NCBI GenBank assembly: GCA_002633005.1
Contig: NMRA01000181.1
Location: 1 to 64,000 of the forward strand
From: Phoronis australis
Lineage: Eukaryota > Animalia > Phoronida
Direction: 5' to 3'
Length of the DNA stretch: 64,000 nt
Shown here: in pieces, positions 13,073 through 50,222 of the stretch
How the letters are laid out: each line of letters opens with the position of its first letter
How positions within the stretch are numbered: position 1 is the stretch's first letter
Program-made: the position numbers and the translations under genes
The notes under the pieces: model-generated
The model's database searches: none
Told to the model about the DNA's origin: nothing
Seen by the model: the letters and a program-made list of their open reading frames with translations, nothing else

Positions 13073-13267
13073 ATGGATTCGACAGCAAAGAGCTTTTGTA
13101 TCACGCTTTTAATAACGATATAGATGTTTGCGATGCTGGCAAATGGCGACTTGCTGGATACTACCCTGGATTGCTTAGTGAGAGAGTACAGATACAGAGA
13201 AGAGACGGCCCACTGTTGGGATATGGTCGATGTTAAAGCCTGCTGGGGAAGATGCAGAACATTAGAG
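13073..13267 (+). pseudogene. GPB5: GPB5-like glycoprotein hormone beta subunit, copy A, coding exon 1 (in-frame stop in the signal peptide)
   Basis: Acceptor TTTTCAG (ends 13067), then ATG 13073: MDSTAKSFCITLLITI*MFAMLANGDLLDTTLDCLVREYRYREETAHCWDMVDVKACWGRCRTLE, then donor GTAAAC at 13268. TAG at 13121-13123. CWGRC is the cystine-knot CxGxC motif. 195 nt, the same length as copy B exon 1. Confidence 0.88.
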
Positions 13268-14362
13268 GTAAACAGTGTAACCATAGACTATAATCTAGGG
13301 TGTAACAAACAGCGACGAAGAAACTGCAAACGCAAAGATGCGCAAGCCCACGTACACCGGTAGAGAGAATTGGCCCGTAATTGTATTTGCGACATTTCAT
13401 GAATGGGTCTACGATTGTTTAGAGCAATCAATAACACATCGCAAGCCTCGGAATTTTGACGAAATTTCAAGAGGTTTTGCCCACGCCATAATATTAGACT
13501 CGTGTAGGATTCTTCCTGTTCTGCACGCCTACAAAGTAAAACTAACAACTAAGCATGTTTTATTAGCATCAGCTGCAAGTTACAATAAGGTTTGTCACAC
13601 GATTTCTGACTTGACAAATTTTGGTTAAAAGACAATCAGAAATTATCTTGATTTTAATTGAAAACAATTAGTGTAACTTATCTGTTTAGCACTTTTTGTG
13701 ACGGACGTACATAAACGGCACCATTATATCCCTGAATTAGCCTTTGACCAAGAGAGGTCGCCGGTGCGCGACGGGTCAAACGATATCAGGATAGTTTAGA
13801 CACCATGTGATGGCACAAAATTCATAACGCGATGGAATTCTCATAAATTGCTCACTAATGAAAAAAAGCAACACACCGTTAAAACAATGGTACTTTTGAG
13901 GTCAATTAAACCCTCCAAATGGGCTCACATATCCACAATTGAAAGTTACATGAAAATCAATTCAAATATGGGTCATGAATTTAGAGAGATTGTCCTTTTA
14001 GAAGAGACCAGAAATAGTAGTATTGTCCCAATTTATTTTTTTTTACCTTTTCACGGAATTGTCCAGATATCGATAGAAATTTACTATCAGGTGACTTGGA
14101 GTACGTATAGTGAAAACCATGAACATCTAAGTGGACAACCATCTTGGTGTGTGTATCGACGGTCAAAAGCTCCCTATATCTAAAGTCGAACGTTGACTAT
14201 TGCTGTAACACTTCGGATTTGCTGTAGCCTCACGACAATATCAACACAGTCCAAAACCAAGGCGGCTGGTGCGAAACGTTTTGACTTTGTACAGGGGAAC
14301 TGTTACCAATGCGACACCAATACAACGGTGTAATGACCCACCTAATTTCATTTTTTTTACAG

Positions 14363-14556
14363 CACCCCTACTACAAGAAGCCTTACAAAATTTCGAATCA
14401 TGTAGTCTGCACGCACGACTTGTACGAGACCAAGACGGTTTCCCTGACAAATTGTCAGCCAGGATACCAGGCAGAGACAGTATCCATCATTACGGCCAAG
14501 GAATGCAAATGTAAAATATGCGACAAAAAACAACCCACTGCACCGCGAATTTTTGA
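14363..14556 (+). pseudogene. GPB5: GPB5-like copy A, coding exon 2 (1-nt frameshift before the final Cys)
   Basis: Acceptor TTTTTTTTACAG ends 14362. Reads HPYYKKPYKISNHVVCTHDLYETKTVSLTNCQPGYQAETVSIITAKECKCKICDKK. Adding one base at the A6 run 14525-14530 restores TTHCTANF* (TGA 14554-14556), colinear with copy B NTHCTTN*. As assembled the frame runs on to 14641. Confidence 0.88.
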
Positions 14557-15728
14557 AACAGGGACTCCTTGGAGATTTCGGCACATTAACAAATTTAAAA
14601 ATGCATCATTTTTATTATTTTTGTATCCACTAAATAATTAAATTTCCGTAAGTACTTTATAGAACTAAAAGTTAATGAGTAACACAGGACGTGAAAGTGA
14701 GCCTAACCGTATGCACATGAAAGTTTCAAAAATTCTTTAAAGTAAAATTATTGTAAAGTGTTTCAAATTTACCAACAGTTAAACACTTCAAAATTTCCAG
14801 ATTCTTTATGCTTCGAATAATCGTGAACCGAAAAGACTGAAAATTCCAAGTCCTGTGCCTGACGTATGTGCTTACTTCTAGATGATCAGCTAAAAAGTGG
14901 TAGAAAAACACCGATTAAACAGTACTACTATATGATGTTGACCAGATATATATTAAAAACCCGCCTTCCAGCAAGACAAGCGTTTGATTTAGACCACTTA
15001 CAGTTATGAAATTGATCTCAAATTGTTCCTTACAACCCATCACTGTCTGTGACCAGGGTGTACAAGTTAGTCCGTCATGGCACGTCACGTGGCGCGTCAA
15101 GCATGGTCTCAAGGAATCACGAAATGACGGTTATTTGCAACCTCAGAAGTCACTTCTCATCTGAGTACAAGACAAGTTGAGCCTGTTTTTAAAGTGAAAC
15201 GTACCGTAAATCAAAAGTTCGAAGATCGCGGGTTTACAACTGGATTAAAATGCACTGCTTCATCGATCATTCAGGTTTTACCAGCCTATCTTAATAAATG
15301 CCAGACCTTAAAATAGGCGTTGAAAGGTTTGCCTTATGAGTGGAATTGAGAAATTGAAGCAAATGTGAGTGAAGACACTCTATGGATTGCCACCTGTTTC
15401 TCCTCCGCACCCTCGATCACTACCTGGTAATTTCACTCCGAGGCCGACAATTTTTCTCCCATCTACCCCCTGTCGAGACCAGTATTACCTGCACCTTCAC
15501 TTCGTCGACACAAGTTGTACCTCTCCGACATGTGTTTGCCTACTTCCATCCCTGTGTGGTCATTTCAACAGGGCCGGAGGAATGTAAACATTCTTTGGGG
15601 TTTAACAAAAACTGATTCAACTTCGCCAAACTTTCATCATCCCGTGGGGCGGAATTTCAGACTCCTCCCTACCACCATGACTTCGCCAGTCCCGCCTTAG
15701 TCGTGCGAATTTTGATGTTGGGGAGGCG

Positions 15729-15856
15729 CAGTGGCGGATTAAGGGGGCCAAGGCCCCCTAAAATCCTCCCATGTTCCATTTGGCAGCTCAGGGGTACGAA
15801 TGTTTGGCGTAATACTTTTACCTGTCCCCCAATTCAAAATCCTGGATCCGCCCCTG
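15729..15856. mobile_element. Short MITE
   Basis: Imperfect TIRs CAGTGGCGGATT...GGATCCGCCCCTG; TSD not clean. Confidence 0.6.
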
Positions 15857-17079
15857 GGAGGAGAGGGCAAAAATTAATGAAACACCTTGATGGGGTTTAC
15901 GAGATACAATTGCCTACTGCCGGTAGTCAAGGACTGTAAAATACCCGATGGTGTGTTCTTCCATCGGCTGTTGCTTGCAAAAAAACAAAAAGCCCATTTT
16001 TTATTTTCTTAGTCAGACAGCAAACAGATGTTAAATATTAGCCGAAATCACCAGCACGTCGCAAACTGGACCCCAGAGCACCTCAAATTGCTAAAAATCA
16101 AATACTCCGGTACACAGAATGGGCAAAATTTACCGAATTTTGGCACTCCAATGAAGATAAACAGAAACCCCACTGAAAATGATAGAGAGATTCAAAGATT
16201 TTCCCATTATTTTAAACAGTTTTAAAACTACCTTACCTCCTGAACCGCTTTGAACCAAAATTGGGCTATTTTGGGACAAAATATGCATGATGCTCCAACT
16301 TAAAAAATATGGTCCAAAACTGAAACAAACATTTTGAATATATCTCACCAAGACGTCTGAACGAACATTTTTTTTCAAGATTTGAGTAGGTGACCCTAGA
16401 GTCGACCTTCATTTGCTACCATGGAATGGCAGTTAATAGGTCTGAGGCCTGTGTCTCAAATAGTTGTTTTTTGTCGGACTTTCGGCTAAAACTCAGGTCT
16501 ACGGGTGGCTTAAGGAGAGAATTAGTTTTGACTATTCGTAGTCAAAACGTAAAAGCCAATTTAGCCTCCTTAGAGAAAAGGCCGATAACGACCTCAATCC
16601 AAAAAAAATTCTAATTTGAGTATTGAACAATATGAGACCAGTTTTGTTACGGTAAGTGATCTAAATTGTTTTTCTCAGAGGGCGCGGATTTGCTGCCCCT
16701 TTAATATTCTATTAATTGCAAAAGCAAGCTAAACAAAACTGGAGTGACAAATTTATCAAGGTAGCCTGTGACACTGCATTGAAATCTAGAACAAGTTCGA
16801 TTTCCGTCAGCCCACCAGATAACATCTGTTATGGGACGTGTATAGCACCTTCTCTCAGAATTGCACTACAGAACGGAGCATGGCGTACTGACAACTCAGT
16901 GTTGGTTATGTATCTAACGGTGGTTAATGACGATAGGAATGGTTTCCGCTTGGTACAATAAGGGGAAAATAAAAAAAGCATACTATATTTTCCCAGGTAC
17001 AATGCAGTTTTCCAGCGAAACCAAAGTAATGGTCTGTAAGAGACAGTGGGTAATGTTATATCTCTTGATATCGCCTTCG

Positions 17080-17565
17080 TATACTTGCCAACTGTCCGCT
17101 CCGGGCGGGACAGTCCCGCCTTTTCAAGGTTTATCCCACCCTCCCTCTACACTATCAAGATGTCCCACTTTTTGACAGCCGGCCAAATTATATAATATTG
17201 TGATATTCCACGCCACACAATAAACACTGTTAAGCCCGGAAAGTTGGGGAGTTAATACACCTGTGATTTTCTGTTCAAGCAAAGAAAAATACTGCCAGGG
17301 TATTTTGACCCTCGTAATTTTCTGACGGAAAGAAAAAAAGATCGCCGAGACTTTCTCGGTCGCTTGCATTACACGCGAATTCAGTTCGAGCAAAAAGGAA
17401 AAAATAATAAAAAAGAATAAAAGGTAAAATATTTCATTTAGCTTATGTTTCTGTCTGCTTAGTATGACGCTTCAAACGTCGTAGACCCAAGTGTCCAGCT
17501 TTTTATCGAAATGTCCATTTTAACCCGGGGTCTCGTTTTTTCATTCTCAGATGTTGGCAACTATG
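17080..17565. mobile_element. MITE (hAT-like termini)
   Basis: TATACTTGCCAAC at the left, GTTGGCAACTATG at the right. Flanks CCTTCG / ACTTCG resemble a degenerate TSD. Confidence 0.5.
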
Positions 17566-20500
17566 ACTTCGCTTTCGAGTTCGTTTCTTCTTTCTTATGT
17601 TCTATGTAATGCTACGTAGTCGTGTTTGCTTTGTTATCACTTAAATGTTAATGAGCAAAAAAAAAAACAAAAAAACATACAGCTATTGATTCCAATAGCA
17701 TTCTATCAACACTAACCAACTGACGAGGTTTCCTAACTATTCCCCAGTCAAGGCCCGTGTATTCATAGGGAGAGCCAGCGAAACAAAAACTGTGTTAATA
17801 ATGTAATGAAGTTCGACTGTTTGCCAGAAGGCGTAAAGCAGTCGTCATTTTAAGACATTTTCTAACTTTTAAAGCATTTGAATAAGATTTTAAATAACAG
17901 ATAATTTCATTTGAAAATGTTCATTTTGCATCCAGTTTATGTTACCTTGGCGTTTAATAATAGCGCGGGACATCAACTTTCAGAATGACGTCATACTGAA
18001 CAATAGGCAAACACAAGTGAAGACGAATTAATCTTAACAACAAGTTCACCTTGAATTTTTTAAAAAGTTATATTTCGTTTTTTTTTGCCCACTACAAATG
18101 CAAAGTTGTTGGGGTCACCACAGCCGCATATACAAAGGCACCACCACCACCACAAATGTGAAATGTACATGGGTTAGTGAAAATTGATATCCTTTTTAAA
18201 CGGATTAATTTCGTTGTCGGATTTCAGTTTTACGTTTTGAAAAGTTTGAATATATTTCCCAACTTCCTGATTTGCTTACGTTCACAGTCGGCATAACTAA
18301 AGTAAACGCTTTTTGCGGAATTGAGAAAAGGGCATCAATATAAAATTAAATGCAAAAGAAGTTTTGTGACGAGCGGACCAATCTATGCCTGGTTAAGATG
18401 GCCAGCCTTCGTTCATAAATTACTTGACTTCATTTCGACGACCAGTCCCGAGACAGAACAAATCGGAGTGGTTTAGTCTCTGCTATGCTATTAGTAAAAA
18501 GACACTTATCTTCAAATTCGTTGATTGGATTATAGAGGGCGCTACGTTTCAAAATGCACTTGAAGGTAGCACTCAACAGTTTTGCTGATTATGGTCTTGG
18601 CAGCTGCAACAGTTTGTTGCACACTACGTACAAAACCTGAAAAATGTATCAAAGACGTCAATGATTCCCTTTTTCATCCGGAAGAGCAGCCGGCAAATTA
18701 AAAAAACGGACAAAAATACACCAAATCTGCTAAATTTCAACTTTCTTCTTGCAAGCAGTAAAGGTTTGATAAAAGCCAAATCTGAAAATAAAATGGGCCA
18801 AGGTGTCAAGAACTGGTAATATTTCACTCAAAGCAGACTCAACAATCAAGGTAATGTCATTCGTAGACTTCACATGTAGCACAAAATTTAAAATGCCCAG
18901 TCAACCCAGCGGGCGCTATTTATTAATAAAATTGAGGCATGTACAAGGAAATGTAAATTCAAACATGGCTCTATAAAACTAGCGAGTGCCACCAAATTTT
19001 ATTTTTCTTTTAACTCGAGAATACGGTCCACGAGTTTGAGTACGTCCTGAAAGGACTTGAGAAAAGTTCGGATATCCCATCTGATGAGCGTTACTCCAGT
19101 AATGCGTATGTGAGCAATTTACGGGTCTGAGTAGGCTTTGGTGGTAAGAGGTAGTAGCGAGCAGAAGGAGGGGGGGGGGGGGGNCCCCGGGCAACCACAA
19201 TGCTGGAGGGCATCCAATCAATATAAATACTTTTCTGAAAGTGTGACTGATCTGCAAGTAAACTGAATAAATTTTTGTTTTACGTTTCATTTCCTTTACT
19301 TTTCTTAGTACTAGGCTCCATGATTTGAATAGAGAGAGGGGCATCCAACAAAGAAATCACCAAACCTCTGCACACTACTGGTCGCAGGCCCAGTTGTGAC
19401 TGCCATCAAGATAGGTCCGATTTTTTTATCTGCTCGTGTTTTTGTCAATAGATGTCGCAGTCACAGCTGGCGCCTCTCGGGTGATAGGTGCTACCTAGGT
19501 TTTGACATTACAGCCGGTGTTCTTTATAGTCATACGGATGATGACGAAAGTCGGCAGAAAATCAATAGAGAAGACGAGCGAACCAGTCTCATACCGTGAT
19601 GGTAGCCCCTGTAACTAGGATTACGGGCTTTGTTGAATTAATAGGATTGGCAGTTTTACAAAGATTAGCCCGCTAGTAACTTGCTCTCAATGACCTTTTT
19701 GTTTTTGTGAATTAATGCGACAGATCAATAACAAAGTAGTAAGCAATGAATAAACACTAATTGTTTTGAGAATGCCAACTTTGTGACAAAAATAATTCAT
19801 GTTTGGCAGAAAATAGCATTAAAGGCTAATTATAGCAAACGGAAACAACGTGGACAACAGAGCACCAAACCTGAGTATGACTTTAACAAGTTTAATTGTA
19901 GTTCAAAAGATCAATAAAGATGTGTCGTCATACTAATAGAACATCGGGGAAATTGGAAGACACAATAGGCCTACGTACAAACAAGTGACAACATGGAAAT
20001 AAAAATTGACCATTTAGTGTCCACTGCGAAATGGCTCTACGGTAGTTTTCCTGAACAATATGTATTTAACAAGTACACAACAATCTTCCGCAGAAATCAG
20101 GCCAACATTAAAACTTGGAGTGACCTCAAATTTCCGCAGAATAATGTCGACGACACCTCACCTTGGGTGGAGTGTAAACTTGAACTCATCAGCGACACAG
20201 TGAATTCTGAGAAATAATTATCGATTAACACATGGGCGCTTAATTAGTAATTGTTCGTGTATTTTTAACCGCAACCTTGCTGCTGCATATTGACCGGGAG
20301 ATTACTACAGTAGCACATGAGGGTCAAAATACAGTAACATATAACCTCAAATTCCTGAAGGCTGATGAGCGGAAGATTGATAAAAACTATCAAATCGTAA
20401 TTTAGAAGAAACGAAATTCCTGGGCGGCAATCTAATCCGACTGAGTGTCAACCACTCAAACAGTTAAACGACGTTGCAAAACTTAAGTTAACTTATGACA

Positions 20501-22247: not shown

Positions 22248-22442
22248 ATGGAGAACTCGGTAAAGATCTATTACGGTGCGTGTTTGATACTGCTAGCATC
22301 CTGCGCTGTGCTGATCTCTGCGAGAGGCATCGACACAACTCTAAGCTGTCTTGTTCGAGATTACTCCTACAACGAGAGCACGACTCACTGTTGGGATTTT
22401 GTGGCTACAAAAGCATGCTGGGGGCGATGTGACACGTCTGAG
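22248..22442 (+). CDS. GPB5: GPB5-like glycoprotein hormone beta subunit (thyrostimulin beta), copy B, coding exon 1
   Basis: MENSVKIYYGACLILLASCAVLISARGIDTTLSCLVRDYSYNESTTHCWDFVATKACWGRCDTSE: hydrophobic signal peptide, Cys1-4 with CWGRC, N-glycosylation sequon NES. Phase-0 donor GTACGA at 22443. Confidence 0.95.
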
Positions 22443-23696
22443 GTACGACTATTATAATATAAACGGCACCGAGCGATTCGTCTATACACTTAAGTAGCAC
22501 CAACACTAGTAATTTAAATTTGTGTAAATTATTCAACAGGTAATTGCAAGAACAAACTCTGATCAGCTCATTTCCTATGAATAGTAAATAAGCCCAAACT
22601 GTGCATAAAAATCAAGTTGTATAATTATGTTTGTAAAAGAAAGCTGTGTTAAACTGGCCAGCGGTGCCACTCGAATGTGCTCAAACCTCGCACGATCACC
22701 CCTTTTCTGTGGACAGGGTTGGTTATGGGTTTAGGGTTCTTTTTGACACGACACCAACAGGTTGCACAGTGAGTAAAACACGAGTTTTGCATTTGGTCAA
22801 ATGTAGTGAACTTAGTAAACCTTATTCAACTTAGCTCTTTGCAAAAATGGTTTGGATACTGGAGGTACTGATTATACTTGCACGCGGAACTTTCAAATTT
22901 AGTTTCATTTAAAGTTAGAATGTGTGATTTCAAGCGTCATCAAACAGAATTCTATAGTACTATGTTCATTTTTGGCCATCACGTTGAATATGAGGATAAA
23001 ATTGGCGATCAAGATTTTATAAAACTCCATCTTTATTACAAGTACTCGACGTTTCACAACTTCCACTGAACTGTATTATCTAGAGAATGAATACACACAA
23101 CATGCAAAACATATGGCGGGAAAATTACAGAGACCAATCAACATTCTAAAGATGAAAACAATTCTGTTAATAGGCATGTGTGTGCCGGTTACGATATATT
23201 TTGACGTTAGAGTTTTAGGTGCTAGTAAATTCCTTCTGTTTGTAAAAGAAAGTTTCAAAATTTTAAAACACAAACCCCAACTCAATAGAATATCGTCAAC
23301 CTTTTACATCCAGCTATTCACGTAGTCTCTGTAATTTTCCCGCCATAAGTTTCGCATGTTGTGTAAATTTATTCTCTTGATAATACTGCAAAGTGGAAGT
23401 TGTGAAACGACGAGTACTTTTAATAAAGACGGAATTTTATGAAACCTTCATCGTCAATTTTATACTCAGAATTCTGTAGATGTCATTCATGACATTTTTT
23501 ATTTCTGAAGTTAAAAGAAACATTATACAAATGGATTCCAAAGGTTTTTGCTTTGTCTTCGATCTGCAGATTATTTCATCGGTGGAAATTACGTCGCTTT
23601 TGTTTTTACAAACGGCGGCGACCATCCAACTCCCCTTGTGTCCGTTCATTTTAGCTGCTACAGATCATACCAAAAACGACTGTCATCTCGTTTCAG

Positions 23697-23888
23697 TATG
23701 CTTACTACAAACTGCCTTACAAAATCTGGAATCACCAAGTCTGCAACTACGACTCGCACGTGATCAAAACTGTTCACTTGACCAAGTGTCATCCAGGATT
23801 TAGACCCGAGCCAAAAGATATCATTTTCGCAACGTCGTGCTCGTGTAAGAAATGTGATGAGAAAAACACACACTGTACCACCAACTAG
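23697..23888 (+). CDS. GPB5: GPB5-like copy B, coding exon 2
   Basis: Acceptor TCTCGTTTCAG ends 23696. YAYYKLPYKIWNHQVCNYDSHVIKTVHLTKCHPGFRPEPKDIIFATSCSCKKCDEKNTHCTTN* (TAG 23886-23888). Spliced protein is 128 aa with 10 mature Cys, CxC motif and no seat-belt, i.e. the GPB5 pattern. Not in the ORF track. Confidence 0.95.
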   Translation, partial: YAYYKLPYKIWNHQVCNYDSHVIKTVHLTKCHPGFRPEPKDIIFATSCSCKKCDEKNTHCTTN

Positions 23889-24214
23889 ATGTAGGCCTAA
23901 GGATCACCGAGCCGCTTTGAATCTCGGGATTGGACAGTCCCGACTGAAACGAAGATTTGAAACGAGAAATACTACCCGTCACTGGATTGATTTCATTGTC
24001 ATGGAATTAGCATGCAAGACACCACATTAAAGTCATTTGTTCTGCCTCGTTAACTATGCACAAGAACAGTGGCTGCGCAGCCCGCCGTCGAAATATCTCA
24101 CGTTTTTGTGGGCAACCTAAATCTCATTAAGTCACTTAGTTGTGTAAATACATGTTTTAGATATTTTCTGTTAAGAAGTCGTCTGGACAGAGTTATGTTG
24201 CGTGGGACAAGTGC

Positions 24215-24912: not shown

Positions 24913-25495
24913 AACAAGAGCAAGGCGGAGCGTTAAAATGCGCACACAACTGTACCACAAATGGCGTCACTTCTAGGAGTTAGTATTTAAAAAATGGCCA
25001 TTTGAAAGCACAGAATATATTGAACCCATCCAAAATGAGAAAGTGTCGTCTTTCAAACTATTTGCCAGAGTTCATGAAAAATCCGTCAAAGAACTCCAAA
25101 GACACAAGGAAAACGAAAAAATAAAATGCCACAATGAACCACAGCTATAGTCGAATCCATCCATTTGATGCCAAGTTAACAAGAATGCAATTATTGCAAA
25201 ATTTCAAAGACATATTGTAAGGGGTTTAGGCGATACAGCCGTAGATGCGAAAAAATGTCACTATGGGACAGTAGTTGGACCCCCTTGAAAACCAACGTCA
25301 CTCATGCTCTTGTCAGTAGAAACACATCTGCCGGGTCTGTTCGAAAGTCGTCGTCCTCTGTCGTCAGCCCCATAGGAACAAACTTGCCAATTTTCAATAA
25401 GATCCTTCAAAAAGTTTAGGAGTTACTACCGCGGAGGCCAGACAGAGATGAAGACAATATGCACCCGCATTTAAATATGTGGGCACATAAAAATG
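24913..25495 (+). mobile_element. Helentron-associated (HINE-like) modular element
   Basis: Begins AACAAGAGCAAGGCGGAGCG, homologous to 47237. Ends GACAGAGATG...ATGCACCCGCAT-TTAAAT-ATGTGGGCACAT-AAAAA, a 3' hairpin also seen at ~49926-49978. Internal modules are shared with 5740-6500 and 46930-49980. Family assignment is inference. Confidence 0.55.
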
Positions 25496-25623: not shown

Positions 25624-25759
25624 GCAGGCCAACGTACTGAGCAGGCCAACGTACTGAGCAGGCCAACGTACTGAGCAGGCCAACGTACTGAGCAGGCCAA
25701 CGTACTGAGCAGGCCAACGTACTGAGCAGGCCAACGTACTGAGCAGGCCAACGTACTGA
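25624..25759. repeat. Perfect minisatellite, 8 x 17 bp (GCAGGCCAACGTACTGA)
   Basis: Eight identical head-to-tail copies with no spacers. Confidence 0.97.
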
Positions 25760-26478
25760 GCCTGATCTCAAGCGCTAACCAATAGACAGTTCTTCACTCA
25801 AAAAAAAAAAACTAATCTATCTGAGCAACATGCACTGAGACAAGTTTTATAACCGTAAGTGGCTTAAATCTAGTCATTTTTAAATAAGGCGGATTTATAG
25901 GAGCTTTAAATTACTAACTGCATGCTCATGCGCACTTTTAACTGATGCCAGAAATGTTGGACTGTATTGCATGCTTTATTTAACTATGATTTTAATGCAA
26001 ACTTGAAATTTCCAGAATGTGCAGGATATTTGCTACGTGATCTACTACGTTACAAAAAGCGAGCAATGAGTCAGCTGGTGGTGGTCGACCATAGTACTGC
26101 GTTCCTTGATAGCGAATCACGAGAAATACATCATGTGAATGCCGCCAATCGGGTCCATGTTCGTCATGTAACTACATATTTCGATGTGGTTATAAATGGC
26201 TGCCATCTATATCCAGCCCCCGTCCATTCGTGACTGTATCTTCTAAACCATAGGATTATTATGAATTTTACAAATGTAGTCTCATCAGTACTCCTGACAA
26301 CGGATGACGACTACTTTAGCACAGATCCGTCTACAACTGTGTCCCTCTGGTGGCAATTAAGTGCTGCTTTTCTGAGTTCCTTGACAGATTTTAATGAAAC
26401 TTAGCACTTATGTATCTATTACGATGACGACGGCATCCGTTGTATCATAACGTTGGCCGCTAGGGGTAAAGGGTTACC

Positions 26479-30000: not shown

Positions 30001-30109
30001 TGTGTCTTATTTTGCAGAGTCTTATCGAGTGACCACGTAAATGATGGCATCGTTTATGTAAACTTGTCTTTGATTGCACATAGCGAATAACATTCAGCGC
30101 GTTGATTAA

Positions 30110-31401
30110 AGGCGAAGGCAACCTTTTTTCATGTCACTTTTATCAAAAATAAGGTTCGTTGATTATCTCAGACACATTTTTCACTTAATTACAGCTTTTC
30201 GTAATTTGATTAATTTCTCGTCCTCTACTCCGGAAGTGACATTTTGGGAGGCAAGAGTTTCGCGCCAATTTCTTTTCATTATAGTCTGACTTTGACAGTT
30301 GTCGAGTCAGTCATTGTTCTACCTCGTTCGGTCGTCGTTTGCTTTTGTTTACAAGTCAGTCAACATGCCATGCTGTAGCTGAGTGCCGCGATGTACTCAT
30401 TATCGTCTCACACGCGCTTTGGGTACCTTGCGTCGCTTTCTGAAGGATGACACACTTCGCCGTAGTTGGCTAGCTCATTCATGTGAAGAACACAGCGCTA
30501 TCCGTCCACGCAACGTACAAAGCAATGGAGGGTTACCGAGTGTGGCAAGCATTTTCTGCCGTCAGATTATGACAGATATGTACGCTGAACTGATGAAGGT
30601 CCCTGCGAAACAACGCATGAAGAAGGGTACCATACCGTCGCTGTTTATTCCCGGCAGTGCCCCGTCGCCAACACCGAGAAGTGCGTTTTTGAAGCGAGAA
30701 GACTATGTACAGTGACTGGAGGCACTTCATCTACTGTTACCCGTGCCTCCGAACGTATCTCATTGCGTGCAACTAGCAGCGATTCGCCCTGTGCTGTTGT
30801 CTCTAGCCCAGAGCCTGTAAGCAGCCCTGCAGCGATGTTGAGTAGTGGGAGTGAATACAGGCCCAGTTCAACACCCAGTGAAGAGGACAGTTCGTCATCC
30901 AATGAACAGATCGGTGAGCCTAAGTTTGATAAGTTTATTGTGGACTTGTATTGGAGCTATTTGGAAGGTGCCAGGTGGGTGGCGCGGGAGTCACACGGCG
31001 GGATGTAAGCAGTTTGGGTGCTCAGATCACCCTCCAATGGGAGTGTGTCGCGGGACACTCGGGCAAGTGGGGCAGTTCTTCCTCTGTACGTGAGACGATA
31101 ATGAGTACACCCCAGTACGCAGCAACAGCGTGGCATGTTGACTGACTCGTAAGCAAAAGCAAACGACGACCGAACTTATCACAACCGAGGTAGAACAATG
31201 ACTGACTCGACTGCTCTCACAGTCAGACTACATGAAAAGAAATTGGCGCGAAATTCTTGCCTCCCAAAACGTCACTTCCGGAGTAGACGACGAGTAATAA
31301 ATTAAATTACGAAAAGCAGTAAATAAGTGAAAAATATGTCTGGGATAATCAACGAACCTTATTTTTGGTAAAAATGACATGAAAAAAGGTTGCCTTCGCC
31401 T
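30110..31401 (+). mobile_element. Kolobok-like internally deleted DNA transposon with ~245-bp TIRs and a decayed THAP-domain transposase 5' fragment
   Basis: TTAA TSD at 30106-30109 and 31402-31405; termini AGGCGAAGGCAACC...GGTTGCCTTCGCCT; long TIRs ~30110-30350 and ~31153-31401. Internal frames give MPCCS*VPRC...FLKDDTLRRSW...(frameshift)ECGKHF...MKKGTIPSLF (THAP C2CH plus AVPT-like box) and later WECVAGHSGKWGSS. Confidence 0.85.
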
Positions 31402-34400
31402 TTAAGAAAAAACTACGAGTCGATTACGTAAAAGTGCGCGTTGAATAAGGGCAGAGCGATGACCGTTCAAGAACATTGGTTACGCACATTTCAATGGGCA
31501 GAAAGGTACTCGTTCAAGAACCCTTTGGCGCTTCGTACCAAACAGCCGTTGACGCGGACCAACGGACTCAACAGCGTCACAGATAATTTTATTTGGAACT
31601 GCGAGATATTGTCTTTTAGTTTCCTCTTTCAAGTCCTCTATTGTTGCTGCTCTTAAAATAAAATTGTCTCAAGTTTGCATTTCTTAACATTTTTGTGTGT
31701 CCAGCAACATTGCGCGATGAATTTACGCTCTCCAAAACTAAGTGGTTTGTTAGCCAGCACGTGACTGTTCACGCGTCTACTTTTTCCCCAAAATTAATAG
31801 AGTAAGTCATGGCGCACAGTAACTGAATTTGAACTCCCGGTATTGTACTGAAGCGTGATTACATTTTTAGAACACTCTGTACACGTGCACTGTAGTTTAA
31901 TGTCGAGTCTTGATTTCGTTAAACCCTGACTTTGTAAGAGGAAAACCCTTTAGTTTTGAACCGGGTGAGTCAACGCGTCCGGTTTTCCACATAGACTGAA
32001 TTTTGGCGTGCTAAATTATCTAACACATATTTTACCTTGGTACGAAACTGCAGATGGACTTCCGAACAAGCACATAATCTCATTTTAAAAATTCTTCGGT
32101 TATAAATGTGTTTCCTCGTCATTGAAAGTAGTTTAACGCCAACAGATATCCGCACTAATCAATCCATTAATGCACTTGTGGTCGCAAATTGCAAAAATCG
32201 AACACCGCTACAGGTAATATCACATAAACATGTTAATTAAATTGGTCGTTAACCATCATAACCTGGTTTAATTACAGCGATTTGTGAGCAATGTATTGAC
32301 GAAAACAAGCAAACAACGTTCTTTTGATAAATATAACCACTTTCCCAATTTCCAAAAATATTAGAATGCGACGTATTTCTTCATTTCCTATAGCTTGTCC
32401 TTTCCCCCGAAACTCGCTTATATCATCCCAGTCAGACCATCATTCCACAGGACTCCAGTGATTATGACCCTCTCGTCTTCTACGTGTGCAATTCGGACCT
32501 TATAGTATAATTATTATTAAGTTTTTGTTATTTCCATGTGCGTGTGGAGCATGTTAGCTTTGGTTATTAGCTCAACCATCCTTGCCATATAGAATTATTT
32601 GAGTCATGAATATGCAGTCTCTATTGTTTACTTGTGTGTAGTTTTTTTACTACACGTCAAGCATTGTAAAACTATGTAAAACAGCATTCAAAACTAGCCT
32701 TCGCATTGGCGGCATCTAACCTTCTCGAAGCATCCATGCCACACAATGTAAGCATACAGTTTACTTTCTCGTAAAATTTTATACAAGCTACGGGTAGAAA
32801 AAAATTCATCAATTCATATCCATCCACCGGTCCGTTCGCCAGTACATTACAGACAGATAATAAAAACCACGATCTTAATTGTTTACACACAAATGAAGTC
32901 AACGTTCTAACGTACTTATTAGAACAATAAGATGCTTGATATTGGTATGTTCGTTCTTTAATTAGAGTTCAGCTCATGAATGTTTTGTGACCCGTGTCTC
33001 TCAGAACTGGTTGGAGACGTAATGGAGGGAGAGGTTTGTAGACACAACGTACTCAGTACTTTATATTCGCACACAAATGCCACACCATTTATGAAACAAA
33101 CTCAACAGGGAAAAGGAAATTTTCTCCTTACGCACCCTATCAATGCTAAATAATACCAAAACCAAATGTACGCTACACCATCGCACTAAAAATGTCTCAA
33201 ATCTTGCCATGTGCACGTAAGTATTAAAGAAAAATTCGAACGACCAAAACGCTGCATCTGTCGCCGACGACAATCATTCATACTAAACATCTGCAAGTGT
33301 ATCATCTTTAGAACAACTGGACATTGTTTATACTGATTAACACGGAGAAATGCTCCCTGCCAATCAAGGAACCAAAGACACTTAATATTTTTACTTGTTG
33401 AATCCATGATTTAATCTGAAACGCTTGAATTTGAACAGAATTATTGCAGAAACTTATACTTGGGCCAATCGAAATATAGCTTATTTTTTAGGTTTAGTTT
33501 TGCAAAAGCTTCCTCTGTGTTCTGATTGATTTTTACCCATGGTTCATTTCTAGACTACGGTACCATTTCATTAACATTTAGTTCAATTGTTAAACGACAT
33601 CAAAACTATCGCTTACTTATTACAGCGTGGCGCCCGATAGAAAGTGGCATTGGCATTAAAGGAAAATTATCGCTTTTTTGACTGAAAAATGCATTTTTGG
33701 GATTCCAGTTGGATGCGATAGACTTCTTGAAAAAGTTAACTTTGACCGGATCATTTTGTTTGTGTGATTTCAAGACAAACCGCCAGTTGTCACCATTGTG
33801 AGGTAGACATTTGCAAAATCAAGACCGGTGACTTGTATCCAATGCTAACACCAGCGTGTATTATCTTACTGGTATCTGTTCAGATTATCTCATGCGATAC
33901 AGCATTACCTTGTAATAACGAGTATCAAAAATAATGCCAAGTGACCAGTTCTGCTTTTCATAACTGGGCTTCATTTCCTCTGCTTCCCCTTATCGTTAAT
34001 TGTCTCTTAGACGACTATATTATTTTTGAGCGGACTCACGAAAGGACGATTTCCACGAGTTGTTGATATGCAGCTCCAGGAGAGCTAACTCGTGGATGAA
34101 ACGGTGTCGTCACCTCGTGAATGGATGGACATACTCTGCCATTCATTGAATGGGGTTTTAGCTCCGCACTCAGAGTGACCAGGGAGTTTTCTGGTTCGAT
34201 TCAGAGCGGTTCATCTCCGAAAATCACCCTTTAAAAGCGCGTTTTTCATTAAACGGGGCTCTTGTCTCAGAAAATGGAATATCACCCTATTCAATTATAG
34301 AATCCACGAGGTGAAGTGAAAAGACGGTGTTGTAGACATTTGTGTCACAAGGTTCACAAGTGGGGCTGTTGTGTTTATAATGAACGATAAAAGCAAACGG

Positions 34401-36530: not shown

Positions 36531-38526
36531 CTATTCCAAAGGCTCACTACTTTGAAAGGGCCTTCTTGGAAAGCAGTGCTATCACTGAAGAGGCCACCCT
36601 CATTTTAAATATCACAATAATAAAATAATGAAATAAAATAAGTTCACTCACTCAGAAAATATCTAAAATTTTGGACCCAGGTGTAGTTTTTATATTTTTG
36701 CATGCAAAAATAAACTACACGCGGTTATTTGATGCAATCAGGGTTGTAGCTATACCGAAAACAACACCCGGGTAATAAAACACTTTATTTGGATTTCATG
36801 CGCATGCGAAATTGCAGACATGTCTTAAGAATACATAAAAATGAGTACGTACTTGCATTTCTAAAAGAGAACGAAGTAAGAATATTGATGAGTTATCAAC
36901 CACGATACGTTTATCAAATCCGTGTCAATGTCGCATCATTTCATAGCGTGACTGAAAGGTTTAGGACCACTGCGCCTCAACCTCACCCACCGGAACCACG
37001 CGCATGGCCATACCGAAACTAAATGTAGTTAGGAGGCTACCTTGTCCCTGCCATTCTTCACAAAATCGGAGAGTCTCATTCAGTCTTATAAAATTTAATA
37101 CCAGCGTTGGTCGCCGCAGCCTTGACCCGCGTCCTAAATGTTGTCCCTCAGTGCTTGAGAAGGAGTCGTTACTTAGATCACGATTGGCAGTAATTGGAAC
37201 TGAGCTCATTTGTAAACAATGTAATCAATGTTTTAATAACTATTCAAGTCTTGCACACCCTTAAAATGGTTACTAAATGGACACAAATAAAAAAAACTTT
37301 AATCACGTCAGTTCCGACTCATCAGCAGACAATCAGAGTAATGAGCTGTCGGAATTCTGGTGAATTGTGAACGGTGGAAGTAAAGAACTTTCGAAGGTAA
37401 CCTTCGGAGTAGTGAACCATCGGAGTACTGAACCCCCGCAATTGTAACACGTAACCTTGGAAACATTCTTAATGAAGTTTGTTGCTCGTATGAAATCTGC
37501 GAGGCGGTGCACCATTGACAGTAGTTGTAGTACGAGTAGCTGCAACAATTTCGTTGCTGCTGTGCATCTATATCCTAGCTTTAACGGAGAGGCTGGGGCT
37601 GGACCTTTTCCGCGNNNNNNNNNNNNNNGGGGGGGGGGGGTTCGATCGAACCCTCCGAGCCCCCCCTGGCTACGGGCCTGAAATTGTTTTTGTACACTAG
37701 ACACTTGGAGTGAAATCGTTTACCTTATATCATTCATTCAGTCGTTTTTCTAAAGTCTTTACAATGGGCGAGAGTTACATTCGCCTGTATCACATACCCA
37801 GATAAGGCCAAAAAGCATATTTGGTTCTGGCCTATTTTTTGGGAAAATAGGGTAGGTGGTGCAATACTTTTTAGTCGCTCATTTTTCCAAAAATGATCCG
37901 TGATTGTGTACTTTTACTCATCGCTTGACAAATCATGATGTCGGTTCAAATGTTGCGCACAACTTTCCTAAAAAACACCAGCGCAGGTCTTAAAATGGGT
38001 CGGGATTAAGATCAGAACCAACTGTTTTTCCGCTTAGAAGAAAACAGTCGTGAAAGTGGATCCTGACATCCTAAACCCCATTAAGGAGGCAGTAAACCCC
38101 CGCGACTGCTATATGGCGTTACAAAACTGTTATACAGTGAATCTCACTTGCTGTCATAACGGATAATAGGATATCTCGGCTATTTGCCATGAAATGTCAG
38201 AAACATCCATTTCCCCATGCATGTATAGTAACCATCACAATGTTAAGATTTATTGTCATATTCTCGGATATTGTCATTAAAACTCAGTAAAATTGATTCT
38301 CACCCGCTTATTAACATGCGTACCGCTGCTTTTCTATCTAAAAACCAACCCAATTCATCTTCAATTCAATTGCCTTATCGGAGCTAGGCGCCGAGGGTAA
38401 AAATCAGCTAATTTCCCGCTTAGCTGCCTTACTCTCAAGACTGTCTATTTACTGTATTATAACAGTTAACATCGAAACCGACATCGCGTGGGTATGACAT
38501 AGAGCGGACTCCACTGTAGTAATAGG

Positions 38527-40140: not shown

Positions 40141-40473
<333 letters not shown>

Positions 40474-41500: not shown

Positions 41501-41506
41501 TTTATT
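41501..41506 (-). promoter_or_regulatory. Candidate polyadenylation signal of GPA2
   Basis: TTTATT on + (AATAAA on -), about 525 nt past the GPA2 stop. Confidence 0.4.
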
Positions 41507-42029
41507 TACCATAGAATAATTTACAACCTTAAATAAATTAAATCAAACGTGTACTGACATAAACCCACTTTTAAGCACACTCATTGCCACATCAACTGGC
41601 ACCAACCAAATTACAGTAGCCAACATGAGCTACCTATGGAATGTTTCATCTCTTGCACGAGTATGCTGTCAGTTTGTGCAACACAAATATAACACACCTG
41701 AGACAAGTATACAGGGTGCCCAACAAACAGGAACAAGATAAAGAGCTTTTTGTCATGAGTGACAACTTAAAAACCTTGAAATGTAACAACCCTCAGAATA
41801 AATAGATGCTGACTAATCAAGAAAACCCCCAATGAGATTATGTTTTCTAAATCCACCAAGTGCTTGCAATCTGAATCCTCTTGATCTCACTTTTCTCCCT
41901 CCATAACTTTAGAATTCAAATTTATGAATCGTTTTTCACAAGTGAAGATGTCCGATTGTCAACAATAAAAGAAATAGTGAGCAAGCCCATGTCTTCGGGT
42001 CTGACAAGTAGACCAAAGCACAGCGACCG

Positions 42030-42149
42030 TTACTTCTTTAAGTCATAAATCACAACGTCTCCGGTATTGCAATAAAGGCACTCGCACTTGGCAGCAGAAC
42101 GGAATTTGAAAGTCCTCATTCCTCCAATACATCTCGCTCTGTATGAGAC
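42030..42149 (-). CDS. GPA2: GPA2 glycoprotein hormone alpha-2 (thyrostimulin alpha), coding exon 3
   Basis: Acceptor TATCTTTACAG then VSYRARCIGGMRTFKFRSAAKCECLYCNTGDVVIYDLKK* (phase 0). Contains FxSAxxCxCxxC. Not in the ORF track. Confidence 0.93.
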   Translation of the reverse strand, partial: VSYRARCIGGMRTFKFRSAAKCECLYCNTGDVVIYDLKK

Positions 42150-45100
42150 CTGTAAAGATAGAATCAAAAACAACATCAAGGATCCATTTTATCAAAGGCC
42201 AAATGACAGGTTGATGCTAAACGATAAAGATAGCAGAGGACAATACTTATGGTAGCAATGACTTTCAAAGTTACAGAGTTTTTCAAGACACCTGGGCTCA
42301 TTTTACCAAAGGTTGTAGGCACAGTTTCGAATAAGAACATGGCAACTTTGTTTTTTGTTAACTAGTGTGAATGTGAAATAGGGTGAAGGTCATGTCAGAT
42401 GCAAGTTCCAATTTATTAAAGACAAGCGCCATGTCGCATTAGTTACAACATGCATAGGACCATCTTATTAGTATGTATAAATAGATTACTCCATGAAACT
42501 CCACTAAAGGTTTAATGGCGCTATTTGCATACAGAAAGTCTTGATGGTGCACTATTATGACCAAATATCCCTAGGTTAAGAGAACTTCAACAAAAATTTC
42601 ATAAATAGTGATAAGTTATTTTTATAACTATACTCTAAATTTTCCGCATCACTTCAAATTGGACACGATACTCTAAAGCAATGGTACAGTTTAGCTAAAC
42701 TGCAGAGCATTTTTTTCATCAGTAAAATCTAATTTCCTTTAATTATGGAAATGCATTTGAGTAACACACGGTCATACATGGCACTTCATCTTACAGTGAT
42801 CACCTTAAAAGCATTTTACCTATGTCCACTCTAACATTTTCTCATCAAATGCTAATTTCATCCCTAATCAAGTTCATTATAATTATCCCTTGTTCGCTAT
42901 TCTTGCTGTGGCAGACCTAAGTGAAGTAGCAATTACAGAATACTTAAGGGAGTAGAATGCCTTATGAATGTTGAGAACAAAATTCAGTTAACTATTGAAT
43001 TGTAAGTGGGAGAACAAGTGTTAAATAAAGGACTCACACGTCATTCATCAAGTTTTTAAGCAAAAGCATCAGAAGGCATGTATTTTGGTTACAAGAACGT
43101 AATCAATCACCCAACGGATATTAGCAGCCATGCATTAAATGCCTAATGACTCACACTTAACAAGACCCATAAATTTAAACATGATTAACAAATATTAACA
43201 GCAGTGTTGATTTATTTCACCAGTGATTAATTAGTGTCAAGAAAATGAGATTGAGACAATAAACAACTGTAAACAGCTTAATACTACTCTAATTCTAAAG
43301 GTGTTCTGAGGGTGAAGCTGTTATCGACAAACAATCTAAACCGGATTCCATGACAGAAGAAATGGTTCATTTCTTTACAACTCAAACAAAGAATGCAAGA
43401 TCTGATTGATGAAATAAATTTCCTGATTTCTGCGAACAGCTTAATATGTAAGGCAGCAGGAGACAATCTCTCTTTTGTCCACTAATTAAAAAACACCCCA
43501 CGTCCTTCGAGGACAAGCACCAGAAAGAGAAGAACATGAATTTAAAAGACTGTTAATAGTTAACCTAGCATGTGCCCTATTCAATGAGAAGTATACAGGC
43601 CAGCTCCAACCCAAGGTGTGAGACTGCCGTTGCCTGCATGTAGCATTCCAGCAAAGCAGCTGCGTCAGTAATACAAAAGGAAATTAAAATAACAAGTAGA
43701 TTTGATGTTAGAAGATGTGACAATTAGGCCTACTATTGCAAAACAACAGACAACAGACCATAAACTGTGCTACGTTTCTATTCAGCTCACTCAAAGACTC
43801 AGTCACAGAGCAGGGTAAAGAATGACGGTCATATTTAATATCTTCTTCTGTATGGGAACAAAGTGATTAGGACACAGCACTTGGAGAGCTCACACCACGA
43901 AGGCAAGCAATGAAAATTATTCAGTTTAGTTTCTTGAGTTTAGTCATAGGTGACCATGAAGCCCAAGATAAACAAAGTGATCAAGGCAAACTGACAACCA
44001 CCACAGAATGCTAGTTGAGTTGCTGTGGTGTACATGGGGGTATGCTGAAATGGCACCAATCAAAGCTATATTGAAGACGAGAAGACAAGTAAATTAGATA
44101 ATTTTCGAGTTCAGGCGTTTTTGACTGTCCACCTGCATCATCAAATGCTACAGACATGTCTTCCTTCCAAGAGGTAAACCTTTGATGTAGACCACTTGCA
44201 GCTATAAAATTGGTCTCCCCTTGTTCTTTACTCAGATGTGCTTGCAAACAACTGACAAAGCTCTCAAGTCCCCTACAATTCATCTAAGGAACATCTTGAG
44301 AGCCACTTCATAATGGTAAGTGGTCTCAATAAAAAGCTAGTCTTTGTCATGAATGGCATGTTTATAACAGCTTTAAGTAATTGTCCACAAATGGTTGAGT
44401 AATTGACAGTTCAAAACTACCTACCTATTGCAAAAAAGGTAAATAGCCTCAGTTCATTTCATCCTAATGCTTGTTGACTGAATAATACTTATCCCTTTCA
44501 TACAGGATGAAACAGTCGCTTACTGTAAGTTCAATAAACATCCCAATGCTCACATTTTCAGTGTATTACTTAACTACTACCTGTACCACTATTGTGGTAC
44601 ATTACTAGAATTTATTGTGTTCCCAAAAATCACAGCGTATCCCTAGAACTACTCAGGCTGGAAAAACATGTATGCAAATTAAGGTTATGCATGACCCTGC
44701 GAAAATGTTCAATTTTGGCTGTGGGGGGGGGGGGGNGGGGGGGGGGCATGGCATCTCTAAAGTAGCTAAAGGCATTGATAGGAAACTTTTAGATAAGATG
44801 GTTCATGTTCTTTTCTCCAAAACATTTTTAGGTATTGTTTTTAAATTGGTCCACTTTTGCATGTGGGGCTATAAAATAGGACTTTTTGTTTTTCAAGAAA
44901 AAAAATCCATAAAACAAAAATGAAACATGTAACAGCATTTTTGAGATCTGATCATGAACTTTTGTACTAAAAAAATGATCATGTTACTGATGCCATTGTT
45001 TTTCCATCAGGCTACGTACCTTTCTTTTTCACTAAATTTAACAAGAACTACATGGTCACGTGATCCAGTTTATGGCCAATTGAAAAGTCAGAAATCAAAT

Positions 45101-46195: not shown

Positions 46196-46371
46196 CTCAT
46201 GTGTTTCAACAATATTGCAACAAGACGACCTGGATGTATAAAGCTGGCTTGGGTTCCTTGCTAACAGTAACTGTCCTGTTGGTACACTATAACTGACGCA
46301 ATAGCCACGGCATGCATTGGTAGTGGCCCAGAAACTCACACATCCATGTACAGCTATTTTTTGCCTGTGCC
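46196..46371 (-). CDS. GPA2: GPA2 coding exon 2
   Basis: Acceptor TCATTGTAG, phase 1: (G)HRQKIAVHGCVSFWATTNACRGYCVSYSVPTGQLLLARNPSQLYTSRSSCCNIVETHE, donor GTAAG. TTNACRGxCxS and the CC doublet are GPA2/alpha-subunit hallmarks. Confidence 0.96.
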
Positions 46372-46929
46372 CTACAATGAAATTTAAAAAGGTAAATAGA
46401 AACATGTGCATAGTTGTTTGAAACGAGCAGGATTTTTGAAAAGACACAAAAAATATTGTTGTAATGCGATGCAACGGTCAATATGTATGTTAAGGTAATA
46501 CTGAACATTGTTTGAGATCACTTTCAACAAAAAATTACTGAACCCATTTCATTAGAGGGCATAAATTCGGTCTTACCCAAGACCGTCGTAGGTTCCATTT
46601 CAACAATTATTATATCTACAATAAAAACTCTTCAATTTGGAACAAAAATATTAGCTAAAACTGCCACATTGCTACTGTTCAGAGGCTTCCCATTGTTGCA
46701 AATGCTCAAGATATCACTTATTGTTGTCTGGAAATAGCTACTCCACACAAACCATGATAAAAGCAAAGTATTTTTTCTGAAAGGTTATTTTTTTGTTGAG
46801 AAATTTGACAGTGAATTTTCACCTGTATACCACATTGTGTCCCAAACTAGAGTATTTTAGCATCAGCTTGAATTGTGACAGTAGCAATACTCCTGTAAAG
46901 GCATAATTGTCACCTTGATGGAAACCTAT

Positions 46930-49900
46930 TTGCCAAATTTCCGAAAATCCAGCAATGAACTCCAAAGATATGGAGGCAAATGTAAAAAAAACTAAAACTG
47001 CCACTAGGAGGCACACCTGTAGTCGGATTGGTCTCTAACTCTTCGTCATCTTTTATCATCTCCATAGGAACATATCTGCTACATTTTATAAAAATCCTCT
47101 AAAGAGTTAAGGAGATACAGCAGTGGATGCAAAAAATAAAAAATGCCAGTAGAGGTCGCCACAGTAATTGAACTTGTCCGAAAATCAGTGTCAGCTGCGG
47201 TCTTCTCATCAGGAAAATATCTAAGGCAATTTTCATAACAAGAGCAACGTGGAGCATTGAAATGCAGACACAAATGCACTACAAATGGTGTGCTTTAAGG
47301 GGTACTTATTTGTATCCTAAAAATAGCCACTTTCTGGCACAAAATATGTCGAATCCACCTGGAAATGCAACATGTCATTTGTTTAACAGAAACCCGTCAA
47401 GGAACTTTAGAAAAACAGAGGAAATGTGGAAAAATTAAAACTAGGGAGCACAGCATTTGTTGGATCTGTCTGAAAGTCCTTGTCATCAATTTCATATAAA
47501 TACACTTGCTAAATTTAATAAAGATCCTGCAGTGGGTTTAGGAGATACAGCTAGGATGCAGAAAAATGGCACTAGAAGGTGCCACACTAGTCGAGGTCAT
47601 CAGAAAATCATTGTCAACTGTTCTCTTTGCACTAAGAACAGTAAAAATGGCCATTAGATGACACAAAATAAGTCGAATCCATCCGAAAACAAGAACATGT
47701 CATTGTTTCTTTAATAGAAAGCTATTTATTAATTTCATAAAAATCCATCAAGGAACTTCAACAGAACTGATGAAAAAAAATTAAATTGCCACCAGGAGGT
47801 ACTGACAGCATTTGTCGTATCTGTCTGAATGTTGTAGTCCTCTGTAGTCAATTTCATGTAAATAAACTTGCTTCATTTAATAAAAATCTTGCAATGGGTT
47901 TCGGAGATACAGCTATGATCACAAAAAACAAAACTGCCATTAGGAGGCGTCACAGTAGTCGAAGTGGTCGTAAAATCACCATCAGCAGTCCTCCTCACAG
48001 TAGGAACTTTACCAATTTTTAAAATCACCCTTAGACTGGTTTTGCTGACAGAAGGGTGGATACCAAAAATAGACTCGAAAATGGCAAAAATGGCCACTAG
48101 GTGGTGCAAAATACCTTGAATCTGTCCGAAAATGGAAGGAAAGTGTCACTTCACTAACAGATATGCCTATCCGCAAAATTTTATGAAAATCTGTTGGGTA
48201 CCTTTGAAGATACTGAGGTAAACATAAAAATATAAAATTGCCACTTGGGGGCACACCGGTTGTCCGATTTGTCCAAAAGTTGCTTTCGTTTGTTGTCCAC
48301 TCAAATAAATATACTTGCTACAGCCAAGGGTGCAAAATCAAACAAAACTGCCACTAGGAGGCACCAAAGTAGTCGAAGTCCTCCGAAAATAATCGTCAGC
48401 CGCGCTCTTCACAGTACAAACATATATGCCAATTCTCACAATCATCCTTAGAGTGATTTGGTTGATAGAGGGGCGGACTTCAAAAAACAGTGAAAATGGC
48501 TGCTAAGTGGCACAAAGTACCTCGAATCCACCCGAAAACAGGAGAATGGTGTCATCTAATTAATAGATGCCTATGTGCCAAGTTTCAAGAGGAGGACCTT
48601 TGTAGATACAAAGACAAATGTAAAAAACTAAAATTGCCAGTAAGACACTGGTAATCGGATCCATCCCAAATTCATTGTCATTTATCGCCTGCTTCATAGA
48701 AACACATCTGCCAAATCTCATCAAGATCCTGTGAGGGGTTTAGAAGATACAGCTGTGGACATATAAATATGTTGGCGCATTAATTGATCCTTTAAATGCT
48801 TGGGCATATTTGAAGGCAGACCTCAAAAATGGACTAAAAATGTTCAAAATTGCCAACAGGAGGCGCGGAATGGTACGTCAAATCCATCCGAAAACGAAAA
48901 GGCATCATTGTCTCTTTTATACTGAATTTCATGAAAATCCATCACGGGACTTGGAAGATGAAGTGGCAAACATAAAAAGTAAGTTTCTGCCACTACGGGA
49001 CACACCTACACTAGGATTGGCCTGGAAATCCTCGACATCTGTTATCATCTTTGTAGGAAAATAGCTGCCAAATTTCACAAAAATCCTCCAAAGAGTAAAG
49101 GAGGTACAGCCATGGACGCTAAAAAAATTGTCACCTGTTGTTCAACCCGTCCGCAAATCAGTGTCAGCCGCAGTCAGGAATTCACCTGCAAATTTTTATG
49201 ATTCTTTGAGCAGCTTGGCGTATAGGAAGGTGGACATCACAAACGCATTAAAAGTTTTTAAAATTGCCAGAATACGTCAGATCTGTCCGAAAACCAAAAG
49301 GCGTCATGGTCTCTTTAAAGCCTAACTTCAACGGAATTTTGTTACTTTAGATGTATTGGGCTAACCAGATAGTCCTAGCAAAGCCTTAGTAAAATAAGAA
49401 AACGCGAGTTCAATCATGCAAATGTAAGCCCGTCAAATGTTAAGTGAAGCTGCCTTTTCGAGCCATGTTGCGTCACCGCGAGATTCCAGCACAAACAACA
49501 AAAGGTTGTATTGAATAGGGGTCTGAATAGAACACCATCGCCTGCGGGTGTTTTTTGCAGCTGTTTGAATTAAAACGTGATTCTCGCGGAGACGTAGACA
49601 AAAGCAAGCCAATATGCCAAACAGTGCGTAACATTTGACAATTTATGGCACTGGTGGGCTCAGAGCGATGCTCTTAACATACTGTAGGAACCAAATTTAC
49701 ATGTGTTACCACTGAAGATAGGCTTTATTAAAATCATTTGCTAAATTTCATGCAAATGTATCAAGGAACTCCAATGATACAGAGATAATAATAAAAAAAT
49801 AAAAGTGCTACTAGGGGACAGAGCCGCAATCAAATCAGTCCAAAACTTGTGATCGTCCGGCGGTCAGCTTAATTTGAACACACTCACTATTCAAATCTCA

Positions 49901-49980
49901 TTATGATACTGCAAGGGTTTTAGGAGACAGAGATGACGGCAATATGTACCCACATACAAATATATGGGTACATAAAAGTG
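46930..49980 (+). repeat. Cluster of modular HINE-like repeats filling the first coding intron of GPA2
   Basis: Many degenerate copies of GCCACTAGGAGGCAC, TCCGAAAA and AATTTCATGAAAATCC modules. Element start AACAAGAGC at ~47237. 3' hairpin ATGTACCCACAT...ATATGGGTACAT-AAAA at ~49943-49978. Confidence 0.7.
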
Positions 49981-50107
49981 ATGCTAACGAGTGACAATCA
50001 CCAACAGGCAATCTGAATGAAAACCATCCAGCTACCTTGACAGTGATCCAACCAATCAAAAACCTTACTGCACAAAGTTTCAAACTAAAAGCTAAAACAT
50101 AGCTCAC

Positions 50108-50222
50108 CTACTAAATGACAACCAGGAGCGTCCCAAACATCAGCACTTCTTACGATGTTTATCAAATGGACAAGAACACACAGAAACTTCATGAGTTGCA
50201 GCGACTCCTTTGAAATATTCAT
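50108..50222 (-). CDS. GPA2: GPA2 coding exon 1 (signal peptide plus Cys1)
   Basis: MNISKESLQLMKFLCVLVHLINIVRSADVWDAPGCHLV-G then donor GTGAG (phase 1, matches exon 2). Alternative start at the Met at 50192. Spliced CDS 115+176+120=411 nt, 136 aa, 10 mature Cys. Confidence 0.92.

Follow-up and report, generated by a model that had tools for sequence, protein, structure and literature searches.

A GPA2/GPB5 locus in Phoronis australis with an old and probably dead tandem copy of GPB5

Gene content of the locus

The window analyzed here, a 64-kb stretch of a Phoronis australis contig, carries three spliced cystine-knot genes, located by a six-frame scan and the reading of splice sites: two GPB5-type betas on the + strand and one GPA2-type alpha on the − strand. 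All introns of the three genes are bounded by GT..AG, and the arrangement read by the earlier note, two betas and one opposing alpha, is present as it had placed them. The first beta, copy A, has coding exon 1 at 13073..13267 (+), comprising a stop-interrupted signal peptide and Cys1–4, and coding exon 2 at 14363..14556 (+), comprising Cys5–10 and running to a stop in register with that of copy B; the phase-0 intron between them (13268..14362, +) retains an intact GT..AG. Copy B consists of coding exon 1 at 22248..22442 (+), with a signal peptide, Cys1–4 and one N-glycosylation sequon, and coding exon 2 at 23697..23888 (+), with Cys5–10 and the stop. Each beta features a single phase-0 intron, at codon 65 in both. 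GPA2 runs on the − strand from coding exon 1 (50108..50222; signal peptide, Cys1 and a phase-1 donor) through coding exon 2 (46196..46371) to coding exon 3 and its stop (42030..42149).

Exon 2 of either beta scores above the Pfam Cys_knot cut-off of 24 bits (29.8 bits for copy A, 37.5 for copy B), and GPA2 exon 2 retrieves 111 proteins without names at E<=0.001, with identities of 38–60% and a best value of 4e-15. Word-index homolog searches with copy A exon 2 and GPA2 exon 2 gave no match, although relatives exist (the 111 for GPA2). Sequence searches of the PDB returned weak matches only, FSH beta at E 0.03 and an alpha chain from C. elegans at E 0.05, with exon 1 giving noise, and Cys_knot clusters in the ESM Atlas were taken as a lead only. 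Scanning the 64-kb window in six frames with a sensitive search turned up no fourth cystine-knot gene. Among ten other long frames of the window, nine had no Pfam family and the tenth a sub-threshold family only.

The predicted GPA2 protein of 136 residues shows the alpha pattern, with ten mature cysteines including a CC pair at 89–90. Beta B is a protein of 128 residues with an open spliced frame, an N-terminus that is hydrophobic, and so signal-peptide-like, by hydropathy only, and ten mature cysteines at 34–123, its chain ending five residues past the last; it has the GPB5 ten-cysteine cystine-knot pattern without seatbelt cysteines. Both betas end 5–6 residues past Cys10 and have no seatbelt region. 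By eye, GPA2 and beta B agree letter for letter with the Phoronis australis Trinity proteins GlyHoA and GlyHoB in the supplement of PMC8557429, in every exon of either gene. This identity with published transcript proteins confirms both splice models and demonstrates that both genes are transcribed. The assignment to the GPB5 and GPA2 families made by the earlier note is borne out by Pfam, by the ten-cysteine patterns and by these published entries.

As assembled, the linkage of the three genes spans small scaffold gaps (N at 19184 and 37615–37628) and an uninterrupted stretch of 331 A (40141–40471), which lies between beta B and GPA2 and is probably itself an assembly artefact. These gaps, and a further one at 44736, each adjoin a G run. 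Several repeats also lie in the window. A 1.3-kb element at 30106–31405 has inverted repeats of ~300 bases (88% alike) and a Cys-rich frame fragment that resembles a THAP start and has no Pfam match; it is probably a degraded DNA transposon. Within the beta B intron is a MITE-like pair of inverted repeats of 144 bases that are 87% alike (22991–23468), and 1.7 kb 3' of beta B lies a perfect tandem array of a 17-base unit in 8.1 copies (25624–25761). GPA2 intron 1 contains an internal array of degenerate repeats (46900–48950), and the same family recurs 3' of beta B (24913–25156) and near 6 kb (6018–6380). The window start features a 467-base direct repeat (88% alike) and a tandem array of 81–82 bases (11–1239, 1520–1800).

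Lesions in copy A and the reads that cover it

Copy A carries two disabling lesions. The first is an in-frame TAG at 13121–13123 (+), at codon 17, within the signal peptide and 144 bases upstream of the exon junction. The second is a run of six A at 14525–14530 (+), one base short relative to the copy B frame, which places Cys10 out of frame and gives the protein an unrelated tail; the shifted frame continues to 14641. The disulfide map in PMC9910494 pairs the tenth cysteine with the ninth, outside the knot, so that the frameshift alone would perhaps be survivable. The TAG stop is the fatal lesion. By descent copy A is a GPB5, with homology, the same ten cysteine columns and the same phase-0 intron, while as a working gene it lacks an open frame with a signal peptide and ten cysteines. 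The retained intron, the position adjoining its parent gene and the disabling lesions mark it as a probable unprocessed (duplicated) pseudogene. The earlier note had spoken of a 'repaired' copy A: this rightly implied a broken gene, but went no further than a hint, and the actual lesions are two, the TAG and the six-A frameshift.

These lesions bear directly on the present-day system of one alpha and several betas that the earlier note had proposed. With its stop and frameshift, the copy A of this genome is unable to specify a normal secreted subunit, and such a system is therefore unsupported; within the 64-kb window the one alpha is accompanied by a single intact beta, B. Any transcript made from copy A now would specify a peptide of just 16 residues and, with a stop this early, would likely be degraded through nonsense-mediated decay; no secreted product would be expected from this genome.

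One alternative is that copy A is an assembly artefact or an alternate haplotype, or its lesions sequencing errors; in its favor, one lesion lies in a homopolymer and scaffold gaps separate the genes. A single contig of DNA run X1 spans 12600–15012 (2,413 bases) at an ordinary depth of 49, with 0 differences and 0 gaps, and contains both lesions. That a short-read contig reproduces both lesions indicates that they are not assembly errors, and protein identity of only 60% together with unrelated introns rules out an alternate haplotype; an artefactual origin is hardly credible. The four listed DNA runs share one sample, possibly the one from which the window was assembled, and contigs drop variants. 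The lesions are thus shown for a single sample, and the agreement with X1 excludes error in the assembly but leaves room for polymorphism.

The RNA data covered 1,844 million letters of run X5 and 1,641 million letters of run X6 (18–19% of each run) and the contigs of run X8, with tissues not specified. Across 12600–16200, depth was 0 on both copy A exons in all three, a result obtained without a positive control from B or GPA2, and the RNA reads that did fall on this interval lay on repeats only. Short high-copy repeats lie 3' of beta A, at 14973–15032 and 15826–15857, and their copies at other loci make them abundant in the RNA runs. Three A-specific motifs had 0 matches in the 3.9-million-character supplement of PMC8557429.

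A product might still be made from copy A by stop-codon readthrough, by RNA editing, or from a Met start after the stop, the last yielding a nine-cysteine beta with a new tail. A Met does lie directly 3' of the stop, the knot cysteines are spared by the frameshift, and natural betas without the last cysteine pair are known from C. elegans (PMC9910494) and from echinoderm GPB5.1. However, the product restarting at Met18 has no hydrophobic signal core (best 11-residue hydropathy 1.29, compared with 3.06 for B), Cys9 would be left unpaired by the frameshift, and no RNA reads were seen on the A exons, in runs read without a positive control. We consider continued production from copy A highly improbable.

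A different alternative accepts the lesions and limits them to this individual or its population: intact alleles elsewhere would give the species one alpha and two working betas. There are only two lesions, the decay simulations described below permit a very short time since loss, the DNA comes from a single sample, and P. australis is deeply structured, with a COI distance of 0.115 between two regions (PMC3978224). Against this, two separate lesions share one haplotype, which requires time after the first, and the contig is unbroken over A at depth 49, with some neighboring contigs at 29–40, which is consistent with, without proving, both chromosomes being alike. Moreover, no A transcript appears in the three RNA runs, again without positive control, or in the list available from PMC8557429. 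Intact alleles elsewhere in the species are thus unlikely, though they deserve to be taken seriously.

Divergence of the two betas and time of loss

The mature betas align without amino-acid gaps. The earlier note had counted about 60% identity (61/101) by hand, and with the broken codon omitted we find 60 of 100 codons identical in residue; in exon 1, 26 of the 38 mature residues agree. Nucleotide identity between A and B is 0.71, 0.74 and 0.48 at the three codon positions. A codon model of A vs B gives dS 1.9, dN 0.32 and dN/dS 0.17, with a likelihood ratio statistic of 35.2 against a ratio of 1; values of 0.08–0.3 fit and values of at least 0.35 are rejected. This ratio is a pairwise average over both branches, not assignable to A's branch alone, and dS approaches saturation. 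The two betas are old paralogs that have long been under purifying selection, averaged over the A–B history. The old duplication and long functional history suggested by the earlier note accord with these values. By its own account, a universally dead copy A with a dN/dS near 1 would have told against this reading; the copy is indeed dead here, but the ratio is 0.17.

The lack of obvious similarity between the introns was likewise upheld: alignments of the introns and 2-kb flanks of A and B score 24, 26 and 28, within the range of shuffled sequences (maxima 30–32). Identity of 60%, unrelated introns and the short-read contig together sustain duplication in situ over a haplotype or an assembly duplicate.

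For all this divergence, copy A retains 10 of 10 cysteine codons and its GT/AG splice dinucleotides. In neutral-decay simulations (substitution-only, 2,000 each), the share of runs that kept all cysteines and splice sites with at most one stop fell from 20% at 0.05 substitutions per site to 3.2% at 0.1 and to 0.2% at 0.15. The retention of all ten cysteine codons and both splice sites suggests that copy A likely died recently. Set against approximately one substitution per synonymous site on each branch, the simulations suggest that A likely became non-functional within roughly the most recent tenth of its existence.

To place the duplication, the betas were compared by eye with those of other phoronids and of brachiopods. 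The supplement of PMC8557429 includes 14 beta entries; three Phoronis species contribute one apiece, each of the B type. The Cys1–Cys2 spacing is 14 in A, B and the other Phoronis betas, shorter than in six brachiopod betas (>20) or in C. elegans beta5 (23; PMC9910494), and is likely a phoronid-specific shortening. Spacings close to this, of 15, occur in one crinoid and one hemichordate entry. Because the short first loop is common to A and B and absent from these six brachiopod betas, their duplication likely followed the phoronid–brachiopod split. Lingula anatina resembles P. australis as a lophophorate with one GlyHoA and two divergent GlyHoB (PMC8557429 supplement). Unlike the phoronid pair, the Lingula betas are each known as an intact transcript and each has a long first loop, which suggests that their duplication was separate from the phoronid one. 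The independent duplication claimed by the earlier note thus appears correct.

Within Phoronis the signals point in two directions. At six sites A carries a residue present in at least half of these brachiopod betas, and the B-type proteins of the three Phoronis species agree on a different one. A single site groups A and B with P. ijimai to the exclusion of P. psammophila. Counting by hand over 101 positions gives 61 identities for A–B, 57 for A–ijimai, 51 for A–psammophila, 91 for B–ijimai and 76 for B–psammophila. Site polarity favors a duplication before the australis–psammophila split, and A's higher identity to australis B points the opposite way; the branching order of A is a hand comparison of sequences, not a tree, and phoronid species relationships are unsettled (PMC3978224).

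This higher identity (61/101 to P. australis B, by hand, against 57 to P. ijimai and 51 to P. psammophila), with the single site joining A, B and P. ijimai, is what would be expected if A had been copied from B more recently, in the lineage of P. australis itself, and had diverged rapidly under relaxed selection without ever having a separate role. That history is difficult to reconcile with a dS of ~1.9, a dN/dS of 0.17, the absence of intron or flank similarity and the retention of all ten cysteines, and the six outgroup-state sites in A would require reversions. We regard a young duplicate as very unlikely. An old origin is preferred, in which A would have arisen by tandem duplication after the phoronid–brachiopod split, likely before P. 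australis and P. psammophila separated, and would have served as a second beta over most of its existence before being knocked out late. During that time A probably formed a second dimer with the same alpha, differing from B in surface residues and in its lack of B's glycosylation sequon.

The hormone pair among known systems

Taken together, we favor, with a probability of about 0.7, the reading that this is a known type of GPA2/GPB5 locus, in which the intact alpha and beta B likely form one thyrostimulin-type hormone and the old tandem copy A is likely a recently dead pseudogene. By analogy with the family (PMC9910494, PMC4341566) and going by work in fly, worm and vertebrates, alpha and B would form a secreted, non-covalent cystine-knot heterodimer with no interchain bond, although the stability of GPA2/GPB5 dimers is disputed (PMC4341566). 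By the same family analogy, this dimer would activate a type-A LGR receptor and raise cAMP; the phoronid survey, in the available part of PMC8557429, left LGRs out. A working system of one alpha and two betas is unsupported in this genome and likely existed in the lineage's past.

A bolder and more tentative reading, which we regard as rather improbable, is that a second GPB5 evolved independently, that both betas have been selected since before the australis–psammophila split, and that two hormones persist in other species or populations, this genome being caught just after a loss. If true, it would bear on the first rise of beta-based hormone specificity without a seatbelt, and would offer a natural comparison, with and without, of the effect of an extra beta in an invertebrate. 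Should intact A occur in other phoronids, two betas on one alpha could be compared for receptor use.

On the preferred reading of an intact pair and a dead paralog, the locus resembles other bilaterian GPA2/GPB5 systems in its ten-cysteine alpha and beta, signal peptides, absent seatbelt and neighboring genes, and differs by the broken second tandem beta. GPA2 and beta B are the same proteins as the published GlyHoA and GlyHoB, of which the accessible parts of PMC8557429 give transcripts only, without genomic linkage and without copy A. Neither copy A nor a phoronid GPB5 duplication was found in open full texts or in that supplement; subscription journals, bioRxiv supplements or the genome annotation could hold it. 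Copy A is apparently an unreported paralog. What the analysis adds is the genomic arrangement of a hormone pair already published, together with an unreported, likely dead paralog, a duplicate that was long under selection and lost late, and one more independent duplication of an invertebrate beta.

Invertebrates with more than one beta have been described before, in starfish, crinoid and Lingula, and the multi-beta kind is not new. The prior description that the earlier note had allowed for thus exists for other invertebrates, including the sister phylum, but not for copy A. In both Asterias rubens and Antedon mediterranea, three betas accompany two alphas (PMC4772807, PMC9793003), and ophiuroid and sea-cucumber GPA2/GPB5 sets are discussed in 10.1101/129783 and PMC6586643. 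These echinoderm expansions are alike in having several divergent betas in one invertebrate, and differ in that the alpha is duplicated too and the copies are expressed. Most echinoderms retain one receptor despite several betas (PMC8286064).

The seatbelt gives vertebrate betas their receptor specificity (PMC4341566). LH, FSH and TSH betas have twelve cysteines and a seatbelt, both absent from the phoronid betas, and the parallel that the earlier note had drawn with these hormones is weak because neither phoronid beta has a C-terminal seatbelt and most multi-beta echinoderms make do with one receptor. Closer to the fate of copy A, vertebrate GpB5a and GpB5b are duplicates of which some lineages have lost one (PMC6752823). 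Unlike the tandem phoronid copy, these and the LH/FSH/TSH betas derive from genome duplication. Further background is given in PMC4079206, PMC3280201, PMC11521371 and PMC5996578.

The Notospermus (nemertean) entries in the PMC8557429 supplement have consecutive gene numbers, a numbering that is consistent with a general linkage of alpha and beta. GPA2 itself has a 12-residue extension past its last cysteine (42030–42070); the entry for P. ijimai has it too, and those for brachiopods have a shorter one.
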